Shown here in pieces: positions 7,010-10,187 of a DNA stretch of 64,000 nt. Positions within the stretch are counted from its first letter, which is position 1. Each line of letters begins with the position of its first letter. A program made the translations under genes and the position numbers. The notes under the pieces were generated by a model. That model searched no databases. It was not told the DNA's origin and saw only the letters and a list, made by a program, of their open reading frames with translations. The stretch is from a phage: the sequence record PQ338057.1. One strand, given 5' to 3'.

Positions 7010-7552
7010 ATGATGCCAGTTAGTCGTAATCGCTGCATTTTCTTAAACGTTGGTTTGGGAGAAGACTCTGCATTACCTGTTGGGGTGCCTGTTCCGTGGC
7101 CTTCAGCCACTCCGCCTACAGGCTGGCTGAAATGCAATGGTGCAGCTTTTTCTGCTGAAGAATACCCGGAACTGGCAAAGGCTTATCCGACAAATAAATT
7201 GCCTGATTTACGTGGTGAGTTTATTCGTGGCTGGGATGATGGGCGTGGTATTGATGCTGGACGTGCCTTGCTAAGTCTTCAGAATGGAGGAGTGGAATCA
7301 CACACCCACCAGGGACAGCTCTTCAGAGTCAGTGATTATCGTACAAAAGAAATACCAGCATCAGAAGTTATGGGAAGAGGATATATTGCAAGCCTGACGC
7401 CGGGTGCTGATAGCCCACTTGATTTTGATGATTATTCTGTATCCTCTAATCCAAATGGATATTTTGTCGGGAATCAGAGAACAACAGCATATGGGGTAAA
7501 TGAAACCCGCCCACGGAATATTGCATTTAACTATATCGTGAGGGCTGCATAA
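7010..7552 (+). CDS. silent alternative tail-fibre C-terminal cassette (H' variable part), currently not joined to the constant part of H
   Basis: PVPWPSATPPTGWLKCNGAAF tail-fibre C-terminal motif; begins at the crossover site, where it encodes ...VGLGE matching ...LGLGD in H. Confidence 0.6.
   Translation: MMPVSRNRCIFLNVGLGEDSALPVGVPVPWPSATPPTGWLKCNGAAFSAEEYPELAKAYPTNKLPDLRGEFIRGWDDGRGIDAGRALLSLQNGGVESHTHQGQLFRVSDYRTKEIPASEVMGRGYIASLTPGADSPLDFDDYSVSSNPNGYFVGNQRTTAYGVNETRPRNIAFNYIVRAA
7036..7061. other. invertase crossover site (gix/hix/pix-like imperfect palindrome), right end of invertible segment
   Basis: ttttcttaaacg-tt-ggtttgggagaa; the conserved half, read on the bottom strand, is ttctcccaaacc. 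Confidence 0.6.
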
Positions 7553-8154
7553 TGGATAACGCTGTATTAAATAGCGAGCTTATTGCCACGAAGGCGGGAA
7601 ATATTCCTGTCTATAACTATGATGGTGAAACACGGGAATATATTTCCACTTCAAATGAATATCTTTCCGTTGGTGTCGGCATTCCGGCATGTTCCTGTTT
7701 AGATGCCCCTGGCACACATAAGGCTGATTATGCAATCTGCCGTTCTACAGATTTTAACTCATGGGAATATGTGCCAGATCATCGCGGTGAAATCGTCTAT
7801 AACACCGAAACGGGAGATGCCAAAGAAATCACAGCTCCGGGTGATTACCCTGAAAATACAACCACTATCGCACCGTTAACGCCATACGATAAATGGGATG
7901 GTGAGAAATGGGTGACAGATACTGAGGCACAACACGGTGCCGCAGTAGAAGTGGCAGAAGCACAACGCCAGTCACTGATTGATGCAGCAATGGCTTCCAT
8001 TAGTCTGATTCAGCTGAAATTGCAGGCCGGGCGGAAGCTGATGCAGGCAGAAACCACCCGACTTAACATTGTGCTGGATTACATTGACGCGGTGACGGCA
8101 ACAGATACCAGCACCGCGCCGGATGTCATCTGGCCTGAACTGCCGGAGGCGTAG
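7552..8154 (+). CDS. tail fibre assembly protein (Tfa), alternative copy inside the invertible segment
   Basis: 200-aa ORF; its C-terminus (DYIDAVTATDTSTAPDVIWPELP) mirrors that of the convergent Tfa at 8126-8563. Confidence 0.7.
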   Translation: MDNAVLNSELIATKAGNIPVYNYDGETREYISTSNEYLSVGVGIPACSCLDAPGTHKADYAICRSTDFNSWEYVPDHRGEIVYNTETGDAKEITAPGDYPENTTTIAPLTPYDKWDGEKWVTDTEAQHGAAVEVAEAQRQSLIDAAMASISLIQLKLQAGRKLMQAETTRLNIVLDYIDAVTATDTSTAPDVIWPELPEA

Positions 8155-8563
8155 GCCATTCAATATCTGGCACACTGGAGGTATCAACCAGCTCCAGTGC
8201 GTCCAGATAATCCAGCCACGAATTATATTGCGCCAGTTCCTCGCCTTTCAGACGACCAATAGCGGCTTTACCGGGCCATTGTTTACTGTTCATGTATTCG
8301 TTGGCCTGATTAATTAATAGCTGTCTTTTTGACTCAGAAATTTCAATAAGTTCTTCATGCGTGGGTGAAGGAATATCTGCCCACGCAGGCATTCCGTCTG
8401 CACCTGCAATACGTCGCTTACCCTGCGGAGGTGTCGCCATAAACGACTCGGCACGTCGGGTTTCAATATCTTTTGCATCATCAGGCCATGTGCCGGAATC
8501 GCGGTATACGGCCTCATTACCAGCCAGATAAAACGCATTTTTTTTAGCACTGTATTTGTACAT
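8126..8563 (-). CDS. tail fibre assembly protein (gpG-like Tfa), expressed orientation
   Basis: 145-aa ORF immediately downstream of H; C-terminal Tfa motif. Confidence 0.7.
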   Translation of the reverse strand: MYKYSAKKNAFYLAGNEAVYRDSGTWPDDAKDIETRRAESFMATPPQGKRRIAGADGMPAWADIPSPTHEELIEISESKRQLLINQANEYMNSKQWPGKAAIGRLKGEELAQYNSWLDYLDALELVDTSSVPDIEWPTPPAVQAR

Positions 8564-8564
8564 A

Positions 8565-10187
8565 TTATTTCCCTACCGCAATCCAGAAAAATGAACTCAT
8601 GCTGGCTACTGGTGCTCCGCCCGCTGTTGGAATCATCAGATTTCGGACGCCGCATCCTAAATTAGTTATCGTTGGCGCTGAAATTACTGGCGACTGAACT
8701 ACGTTAGGAAGCGATGCCTGCTGAGGACCAAATCCCACATACATCGGGTATGCAGAGAACGCGACAGGAAACGTAATAAAGATCTCTCCAGTTGATGATG
8801 GATTGGCTGCCCCCCACTGAATAATCAGACCTGACGGTAATTTTTGCCAGCCAGGGCTGGTCAGGCTGGATGTGAAGTCATTCATATCCGGAATCTGATT
8901 TGCCCCTGAGCCAACATCCCTTTGAGCCGCACTTTTCAGATCAAGATAAGTTCTTAGTTCAGCCTTATCCTTACCGCTTAAATCTGTCAGTGTCTGGTCT
9001 TTTGGTTGCGCATAGTCTTTTGTTGCCAGACGAACTACTGTATTTGTTCTGGCGAATCGCATATACGGGGCATTGACGTTACTACTGTCAAACCCTGCAA
9101 TTTTACATTCATCACCAATTAATGCATCTCCCAAACCAAGGTATGCGAGAAGACCAGCTACATCCTTTCCACTCAAATTAGTCAGCGTATTGTCCAACGG
9201 TTGTTTACCTGCCAGCGCATTAAGCATTGTCGTGGCAAAGTTCGGGTCATTCCCCAGCGCCGCAGCCAGTTCGTTCAGTGTATCCAGTGCAGCAGGTGCA
9301 GACCCCACCATTGCCGCAATTGCCGATTTCACAAAAGCCGTGGTGGCAATCTGTGTATTGTTAACCGACTGTGCGGCAGTGGGGGCTGTTGGCGTTCCGG
9401 TGAATGCCGGACTTAACAGCGGCGCTTTCAGTGCCAGCGCATTGTTAATGGTGGTACTGAATTTCGGGTCATTATTAATGGCAGCGGCAATTTCTTTCAT
9501 CGTATCCAGTGTGGCTGGCGCACCATTAATAAGGGCCATCAGTGCCGCCTGAACAAACGCGGTGGTCGCAATCTGCGTGGTGTTATTCCCCTCCGCTGGC
9601 GTTGGCGCTTTGGGTGTTCCGGTCAATGTCGGGCTTTCTTTGGGTGCATACTGTGAATGCGGGTCCGGTGCGGCAAGATGTTTTGCCATCTTATCATCCA
9701 CGAACACCTTCAGCTCCAGTACCTTGTCATCCACATACTTGCGGGTTGCCAGCACGACGGCAGGGTCGATTTTCAGGGTGATATTGTCCGTGCTGCTGGT
9801 AATCAGCACCATGCGCACGGTCTGGGTACGCCCACTGCCTTCAGCCAGTTGCGGCTTATAGCTTTCCGGGCAGTTTCCCACGGCAATCAATGCCCCGGAC
9901 TCATCAAACAGGCCCACTTCACGTATCCACCAACCGCCCTCATTTTCAGGGATTACCTGTTCAGCAATAATCTGGCTACTGTTCTGCGGGTCGATATAGA
10001 GCATATTCAGCGCAGCCCGGCGTTTCTCATTCACCAGTGCAGTCTGCTTTGCATCCGGCGTTGGCAATACTCCGCCGCCATCGCCGACCGCCATATGGGT
10101 AATTTTTAAAGGCACACCGAGCGCGGCGGCGCTGGCAAGTTTCGCCGCGCCAATATCCGTCAGCAGGGTATAAAATTTTGTGCTCAT
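8565..10187 (-). CDS. tail fibre protein gpH (constant N-terminal part plus variable C-terminal part)
   Basis: N-terminus MSTKFYTLLTDIGAAKLASAA...MAVGDGGG resembles P2 gpH; repeated TQIATTAFV motifs; 540 aa. Confidence 0.85.
   Translation of the reverse strand: MSTKFYTLLTDIGAAKLASAAALGVPLKITHMAVGDGGGVLPTPDAKQTALVNEKRRAALNMLYIDPQNSSQIIAEQVIPENEGGWWIREVGLFDESGALIAVGNCPESYKPQLAEGSGRTQTVRMVLITSSTDNITLKIDPAVVLATRKYVDDKVLELKVFVDDKMAKHLAAPDPHSQYAPKESPTLTGTPKAPTPAEGNNTTQIATTAFVQAALMALINGAPATLDTMKEIAAAINNDPKFSTTINNALALKAPLLSPAFTGTPTAPTAAQSVNNTQIATTAFVKSAIAAMVGSAPAALDTLNELAAALGNDPNFATTMLNALAGKQPLDNTLTNLSGKDVAGLLAYLGLGDALIGDECKIAGFDSSNVNAPYMRFARTNTVVRLATKDYAQPKDQTLTDLSGKDKAELRTYLDLKSAAQRDVGSGANQIPDMNDFTSSLTSPGWQKLPSGLIIQWGAANPSSTGEIFITFPVAFSAYPMYVGFGPQQASLPNVVQSPVISAPTITNLGCGVRNLMIPTAGGAPVASMSSFFWIAVGK
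9126..9151. other. invertase crossover site inside gene H (left end of invertible segment)
   Basis: atctcccaaacc-aa-ggtatgcgagaa, inverted relative to the 7036-7061 site; encodes LGLGD at the constant/variable junction. Confidence 0.55.

Follow-up and report, generated by a model that had tools for sequence, protein, structure and literature searches.

The window, a 64,000-nucleotide stretch (PQ338057.1), is Escherichia coli B DNA (REL606/BL21), and the tail-fiber region considered here lies in a defective P2-like prophage integrated at rybB. The 3' end of the RybB sRNA gene (5877-5955, + strand; Rfam RF00110, 105 bits) forms the attachment site; the two copies of the att repeat, a 27-nt direct repeat with 85% identity at 5942-5968 and 30097-30123, bound a prophage of ~5.96-30.1 kb of the window. 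The rybB prophage of E. coli B has been called Rybb*B (PMC3032704). Late-gene order and hallmark genes of P2 (Q, P, O … V, W, J, I, H … D, ogr; integrase; repressor) are present, and assignment to the P2-like phages (Peduoviridae) is based on the REL606 RefSeq annotation together with the Pfam families Tail_P2_I, Phage_GPD, and Ogr_Delta. The last gene of the prophage is the late-gene activator ogr (6033-6284, − strand; Ogr_Delta, E = 6.7e-22; RefSeq annotation). Rybb*B is incomplete, having undergone two internal deletions: in the RefSeq annotation of REL606, gpO is joined to the 3' end of the lysozyme gene, and no sheath, tube, or tape-measure genes are annotated in the prophage. Since the capsid gene block is also gone, no virion would remain for a tail-fiber switch to act on.

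The tail fiber gene H (8565-10187, − strand) encodes 540 residues with a Phage_tail_fib N-terminal domain and a Gp53-like_C domain. Its constant part occupies 9140-10187 and its variable, gp53-like tip 8565-9137; residues 1-354 are 95.5% identical to H of the homologous prophage in CE10, and divergence begins past a crossover site within the gene. The tip, which is the one expressed at present, is followed by its assembly chaperone Tfa (8126-8563, − strand; Caudo_TAP, E = 2.2e-29), which shares 65% identity with the CE10 tfa product and 45% with K-12 TfaP. On the opposite strand lies a silent, collar-type alternative tip, H' (7010-7552; Collar, E = 6.5e-16). Its ORF starts 28 nt upstream of a second crossover site, and the H' cassette proper runs from that site to the stop codon. 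H' shares 97.6% identity with the H expressed in CE10 (residues 350-516) and 57% with K-12 StfE. Its own chaperone, Tfa' (7552-8154, + strand; Caudo_TAP, E = 3.6e-30), is of the TfaE type, with 89% identity to K-12 TfaE across all 200 residues. Measured from core to core of the two sites, the segment carrying both tips and both chaperones spans 2,088 bp (7051-9138), as delimited by comparison with CE10 and by simulated inversion. A crossover simulated at the central TT yields an open, in-frame H of 516 residues, the tip of which is 97.6% identical to that of the expressed CE10 protein. A constant N-terminus outside the segment, two opposed tips inside it, each with its own Tfa, and a retained reading frame together identify the locus as an invertible tail-fiber segment. 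The ORFs, Pfam domains, and simulated product thus bear out the original prediction that the sites bracket two opposed tip-and-Tfa cassettes and that inversion would swap the tips in frame.

The repeat search recovered an inverted pair of 25 nt at 7038-7062 and 9127-9151 with 80% complementarity. Together with a pattern scan, this defines a left site, TTTTCTTAAACG-TT-GGTTTGGGAGAA, at 7038-7063 (core dinucleotide 7050-7051) and a right site inside H, ATCTCCCAAACC-AA-GGTATGCGAGAA, at 9126-9151 (core dinucleotide 9138-9139). Both are 26-bp sites of the Hin/Gin/Pin type in inverted orientation, comprising two 12-bp half-sites around a 2-bp core, and the cores match, reading TT on the left and AA on the right on the + strand. 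The right site had been predicted at exactly these positions; the left had been placed at 7036-7061, and the repeat search and site alignment shift it by 2 nt. The left site, before H', encodes …NVGLGE and the right site …YLGLGD, in agreement with the predicted VGLGE and LGLGD motifs, and TT falls at codon positions 2-3 in both. The consensus TTCTCNNAAACCNNGGTTTNNGAGAA matched with up to three mismatches at only two places in the 64 kb, the two crossover sites, against a chance expectation of 0.00 in 100 shuffles; the same scan, applied as a validating control to the e14 P segment of K-12, picked exactly the two crossover sites of that element. The site alignment, which the original prediction had allowed might prove insignificant on closer comparison, holds. 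In CE10, SW071611, and SW071619 the left site has the same sequence as in B, and the right site differs from that of B at two positions. Of these, position 1 also varies in pixL of e14, and position 20 is among those given as N in the consensus.

Comparison among genomes shows that segments of this kind do invert where the invertase is intact. The sibling isolates SW071611 and SW071619 differ only by the inversion of a 1,878-bp block between the same sites, with flanks that are 100% identical; their invertase is intact at 191 residues. Between E. coli B and CE10, a block at 7047-8413 is inverted, collinear flanks end at 7063 and 9127, and the breakpoints fall within the crossover sites. In contrast to these homologous segments with intact invertase, for which both orientations are found, B shows 44 native and 0 flipped copies: the locus is collinear and 100% identical, in one orientation, across all 44 complete chromosomes of the B lineage, though these assemblies are clonally related rather than independent draws and, as consensus sequences, could conceal a minority flipped subpopulation. 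A simulated flipped B locus was found in 0 of 5,426 genomes. For the e14 segment, which retains an intact pinE and served as a control, the same collection contains 168 native and 113 flipped copies. These counts, together with the sibling flip, support the earlier suggestion that the B segment is locked.

The invertase gene beside the segment survives only as a remnant (6744-6982, − strand; RefSeq pseudogene) that lies 56 nt from the left site. It comprises codons 1-80 of a Pin-type serine invertase of 188-191 codons, shares 97% nucleotide identity with the invertase gene of CE10 as far as the junction, and matches PinE at 75 of 80 residues by direct count. At the junction, 6743/6744, which shows 1 nt of microhomology, codon 80 is joined, in a different reading frame, to the last third of the gpD gene; the reading frame of the remnant continues within D and reaches a stop at 6707. 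The gpD fragment (6342-6743, − strand; Phage_GPD 220-302/305; RefSeq pseudogene) retains approximately the last 134 codons and shares 97% nucleotide identity with the 3'-terminal part of the complete D gene of TW14425, starting at about D codon 233; the N-terminal two-thirds of gpD are deleted. A deletion of roughly 7 kb took invertase codons 81 to the end, the tail genes from that of the sheath to U (FI-FII-E-T-U), and two-thirds of D. A full-length homolog of the invertase aligns over residues 1-184 with Mu Gin (3UJ3; E = 3e-93), and the Hin DNA-binding domain corresponds to its residues 141-185; the deletion therefore removed catalytic-domain residues 81-136 as well as the DNA-binding domain at 141-185. 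An adjacent full-length serine invertase of ~190 residues with a C-terminal helix-turn-helix is accordingly absent from B. The truncation had been correctly predicted, but not its extent or its cause: the catalytic N-terminal domain, thought to be complete, is not, as the 80 remaining codons (of ~190) match the Resolvase profile only over positions 2-89 of 145, and ~40% of the catalytic domain, including the alpha-E part, is missing along with the whole DNA-binding domain, through the ~7-kb deletion that fused the invertase to gpD. In such systems a recombinational enhancer bound by Fis is usually present in cis, within the 5' portion of the invertase gene. B retains the first 240 bp of that gene, and an enhancer may well survive within them; a scan for a pair of Fis sites with GNNYAWWWWWTRNNC, allowing up to one mismatch, found no match in B, CE10, SW071611, or e14, but the motif is so degenerate that this negative says little, functional relatives included.

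Taken together, these data make it highly probable that the locus is a disabled Pin-type (Hin/Gin/Cin/Pin family) host-range inversion switch for tail fibers in a defective rybB P2-like prophage. Judging from family membership, the ~190-residue serine invertase encoded beside the segment in intact relatives would pair the two 26-bp sites, cut the central TT/AA dinucleotide, rotate the strands, and religate them. The constant part of H would thereby be joined to either the gp53-like or the collar-type tip, followed by that tip's own Tfa chaperone. In B, the single ~7-kb deletion removed the invertase from codon 81 onward while the sites and both cassettes survived; with its cognate enzyme gone, the segment would be frozen with the gp53-like tip on H. 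A frozen tail-fiber switch is an ordinary, well-understood relic of an already known kind. Its description here documents the Rybb*B tail-fiber region in BL21 and REL606 as such a switch and has little import beyond annotation; assemblies and variant callers should encounter no orientation heterogeneity at this locus, unlike at e14 in K-12. The B locus also offers a natural substrate, with sites but no enzyme, on which PinE, PinR, PinQ, Cin, and Gin could be tested in trans, and such tests would bear on the 2025 claim that PinQ and PinR invert prophage fiber segments as a phage defense.

That the inverted repeat is no recombination site, but merely a conserved (L/V)GLG(D/E) coding motif on opposite strands, is extremely improbable. 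Both sites do lie within coding sequence, and their common half-site encodes GLG(E/D). However, the 12-2-12 dyad is complete and takes in the outer half of the left site, which is non-coding. The crossover sites of e14 match those of B, the remnant of a Pin-family invertase is only 56 nt away from the left one, and the inversion that separates the sibling genomes has its ends within these very sites. A chance repeat or coding-motif artifact was rejected on the basis of the dyad, the shuffled expectation, and the SW071611/SW071619 inversion.

A reading in which the segment is not fully locked, being flipped in trans by PinR (of Rac) or PinQ (of Qin) at low frequency or on phage attack, appears unlikely. 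The original prediction had aptly reserved the possibility of a trans-acting invertase: B carries an intact pinR, whose product shares 99.5% identity with PinR of K-12, and its DNA contains a second pinR/pinQ-like copy; PinQ is probably kept. A word-11 blastn search for a second Pin-like gene that might act in trans returned one Pin-like place per B chromosome, and this candidate was rejected; since pinR and pinE show no similarity at the DNA level, such a search cannot see pinR, which was therefore sought separately. According to Kirigo et al. (2025; PMC12529663), PinQ and PinR act at the repeat TTGGTTTGGGAGAAGG to invert the P segment of e14, and this inversion blocks T2. The B left site contains TTGGTTTGGGAGAAGA, the segment is 87-89% identical to e14, and an ATG-started ORF runs across the left site; given the report for the homologous e14 segment, the B segment may not be absolutely locked. 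A flip in trans would join the ORF start at 7010 to the gp53-like tip as a short-leader chimera, and would also produce an H-collar fiber with a possible effect on phage adsorption, such as has been claimed for the e14 protein StfE2. Against this, the same study states that deleting pinE is by itself enough to lock the P segment of e14 in its non-inverted form (PMC12529663), which indicates that chromosomal PinR and PinQ give no detectable flipping. The flipped state occurs in 0 of 44 B-lineage assemblies, as compared with 40% for e14 with pinE, and PinR is only 38% identical to PinE. E. coli B is, moreover, the classical T2-sensitive host. Blastn found no DNA similarity between the e14 region and the gp53-like tip carried by B, and blastp at E ≤ 1e-3 found none between that tip and StfP. 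The further proposal that the segment is still a live substrate for PinR/PinQ, or for incoming P1 Cin or Mu Gin, with chimeric tips altering susceptibility to T-even phages, is quite improbable; if true, it would extend the recombinase-activated defense recently claimed for e14 to a second, invertase-less locus in the classical T-phage host.

The disabled switch of B invites comparison with several known systems, and the predicted likeness to the Mu G, P1 C, and e14 P segments is supported, e14 being the closest of these three. The P segment and PinE of K-12 e14 share its arrangement (constant fiber part, tip and Tfa, inverted Tfa and tip, invertase), with 87-89% nucleotide identity across tfaE and the beginnings of stfE and pin, in the same state; the crossover sites belong to the same type, and half-site GGTTTGGGAGAA is common to both. 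Unlike e14, a lambdoid relic at icd found in both orientations, the B element is a P2-like prophage at rybB that occurs in one orientation, has its invertase cut to 80 codons, and expresses a different, gp53-like tip allele. One account of P2-like coliphages makes no mention of inversion (PMC5285337). A tail-fiber invertase occurs in several P2-like (Peduoviridae) elements, among them the prophages of CE10 and SW0716xx as well as phages pro483, Cartapus, 500465-1, and KP12, which have in common the order V-W-J-I-H-[invertible segment]-invertase-FI. These elements are 92-97% identical to B at the nucleotide level, with an identical left site and a collar tip at 97.6%; unlike B, they keep a 188-191-residue invertase and the tail genes, and both orientations are seen. 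The Mu G/Gin, P1 C/Cin, and Salmonella Hin systems belong to the same serine-invertase family and share the 26-bp site design, and the logic of fiber-tip swapping is common to Mu and P1. All three are more distant in sequence from B and have a working invertase; Hin switches a promoter rather than fiber tips.

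The fibre-switch locus lies in a P2-like prophage flanked by ybjL and rcdA and inserted at the 3′ end of the RybB sRNA gene (5877-5955). Direct 27-nt repeats that are 85% identical (5942-5968, overlapping the rybB 3′ end, and 30097-30123) mark the two prophage ends as attL and attR and delimit an element of ~24.2 kb. This prophage, known in the literature as Rybb*B, carries retron Ec86 (PMC3032704); RefSeq annotates a ‘retron St85 family RNA-directed DNA polymerase’ (18698-19585, minus strand) and a ‘retron St85 family effector protein’ (19823-20746, minus strand), while at the Rfam gathering threshold no msr/msd family was matched at the retron, RybB being the sole match in the window. 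Forty-four complete chromosomes match 5800-10200 at 100% identity, collinearly and in a single piece; at least 40 of these are of the E. coli B lineage or descend from it (REL606, BL21 and its derivatives, ATCC 11303, NCTC 10537, and others). NZ_CP029371.1, labelled ‘Escherichia coli strain C’ from cow's milk, matches E. coli B at 100% identity across the entire 4.4-kb locus, B-specific deletion junction included, and could be a member of the B lineage that goes by a different name.

Within the prophage, the late-gene activator ogr (6033-6284, minus strand) is followed by a 3′ fragment of gpD (6342-6743, minus), whose N-terminal two thirds are deleted, and by codons 1-80 of the invertase (6744-6982, minus). 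The silent collar-type tip H′ (7010-7552, plus; Pfam Collar) and its assembly chaperone Tfa′ (7552-8154, plus; 89% identity to K-12 TfaE) oppose Tfa (8126-8563, minus), chaperone of the expressed tip, and the tail-fibre gene H (8565-10187, minus), which has a gp53-like tip and contains the right crossover site. Genes I, J, W, and V lie upstream of H in P2 order. A repeat search of the window recovered an inverted pair at 7038-7062 and 9127-9151, bearing out the site pair of the original prediction, although its left coordinates had been placed 2 nt too far left. Taken as 26 bp, the left site (7038-7063) reads TTTTCTTAAACG-TT-GGTTTGGGAGAA and the right site (9126-9151) ATCTCCCAAACC-AA-GGTATGCGAGAA, with 2,088 bp from core to core. 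The cores, TT and AA on the plus strand, are therefore identical in inverted orientation, and occupy codon positions 2-3 in both frames (Leu in H, Val in H′). With the crossover simulated, H stays open over 516 aa and reads ...LLAYLGLGEDSALPVG..., so that inversion would keep the frame, as had been proposed. The sequence TTCTCNNAAACCNNGGTTTNNGAGAA, which we take to be the consensus of this site family and which served as a lead rather than a test, matches only these two sites in 64 kb at three or fewer mismatches (0.00 expected from shuffles); in K-12, the same scan picked out exactly the two crossover sites of the homologous e14 P segment.

Three comparisons show that these sites recombine in nature, as expected from their original reading as crossover sites. 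The B locus and the CE10 prophage run collinear in their flanks as far as 9127 and again from 7063, with the block 7047-8413 inverted; the silent cassette of B and the collar tip that CE10 expresses share 97.6% identity. In the sibling isolates SW071611 and SW071619, which have 100% identical flanks and an intact 191-aa invertase, a 1,878-bp block lying between 26-bp sites is cleanly inverted in one relative to the other, and the ZH48/ZH49 pair presents the same contrast in orientation. The left site of the SW isolates is that of B; their right site differs at position 1, also variable in e14 pixL, and position 20, an N in the presumed consensus. Across the collection, the collar tip adjoins the invertase in 86 genomes (44 of B lineage) and is joined to H in 14.

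The invertase truncation is likewise confirmed. Alignment to the full-length CE10 invertase and TW14425 D traces it to one deletion whose junction, 6743/6744, shows microhomology of 1 nt and fuses invertase codon 80 out of frame to D codon ~233; RefSeq labels both genes partial pseudogenes. Mu Gin (3UJ3) aligns to residues 1-184 of a full-length homologue (E=3e-93); the catalytic-domain construct of gamma-delta resolvase matches residues 2-136 of that homologue, and the DNA-binding domain of Hin residues 141-185. The remnant retains the Ser10 region and the DRLGR motif but lacks the entire DNA-binding domain and, contrary to the expectation of a complete catalytic domain, the C-terminal ~40% of that domain as well, including helix E. 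A remnant of this extent cannot function. FI, FII, E, T, and U were lost in the same deletion; at a second one, located at 14854-15746, the gpO scaffold gene continues directly into what is left of the lysozyme gene, its 3′ fragment, and the capsid, small-terminase, head-completion, X, and holin genes are gone. The prophage is unable to build heads or tails, and is already catalogued as defective.

TW14425, LR-45, and WWCOL-315 also have P2-like remnants at the ybjL/rybB site, and their independent deletions again affect the invertase-to-D interval. TW14425 lacks the invertase, the left site, and FI-T; the WWCOL-315 invertase ends at ~125 codons, joined to D at a different point than in B; and LR-45 keeps an invertase 3′ fragment alone. 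These sequences suggest that the tail-sheath block has been lost repeatedly. Between V and S, B carries a DUF6216 gene (12715-13521, plus), on the strand opposite to the tail genes, where LR-45 has a SIR2-family gene (8283-9488 of that locus), suggesting a possible cargo or defence hotspot in such prophages.

The orientation is the same in all 44 B-lineage chromosomes, and a simulated flipped B locus was found in 0 of 5,426 genomes. The e14 segment with intact pinE, a positive control for what assemblies can reveal, occurred 168 times in the MG1655 reference state versus 113 flipped, with several MG1655, DH1, and DH5alpha assemblies identical (100%) to the flipped form. Were 40% of copies flipped, 0/44 would have a probability of ~1e-10, assuming an independence that clonal laboratory lineages fit only in part. 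These counts agree with the prediction that the segment is probably locked. Flipping at a low level or upon induction, driven by another recombinase, is improbable and finds no support in the present data, although inversion of the e14 P segment by PinQ and PinR has been reported (Kirigo et al. 2025, PMC12529663) and B keeps both an intact pinR in the REL606 Rac prophage (19690-20280 of that locus, next to a Rac tail-fibre region) and a further pinR/pinQ-like match. B PinR is 99.5% identical to K-12 PinR and 38% to PinE; no Pin-type crossover site was found in the 50 kb around Rac pinR at five or fewer mismatches, and a chimeric-query search turned up a single Pin-like DNA match in each B chromosome. 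In the same study, deletion of pinE alone locked the P segment non-inverted, which stands against such flipping and agrees with the single orientation in B; a chimeric StfE2 protein blocked T2 adsorption (Kirigo et al. 2025, PMC12529663).

No phenotype is expected from the B segment, and our literature search found no account of this particular one; the type of system is textbook and already known. The locus has the sites and paired cassettes of its family, but neither a functional invertase nor both orientations were observed. It is a Pin switch without its enzyme, a close homologue of e14 P/Pin (87-89% nucleotide identity; 75/80 invertase residues identical), and resembles tail-fibre switches that carry an invertase and are annotated in many P2-like phages.
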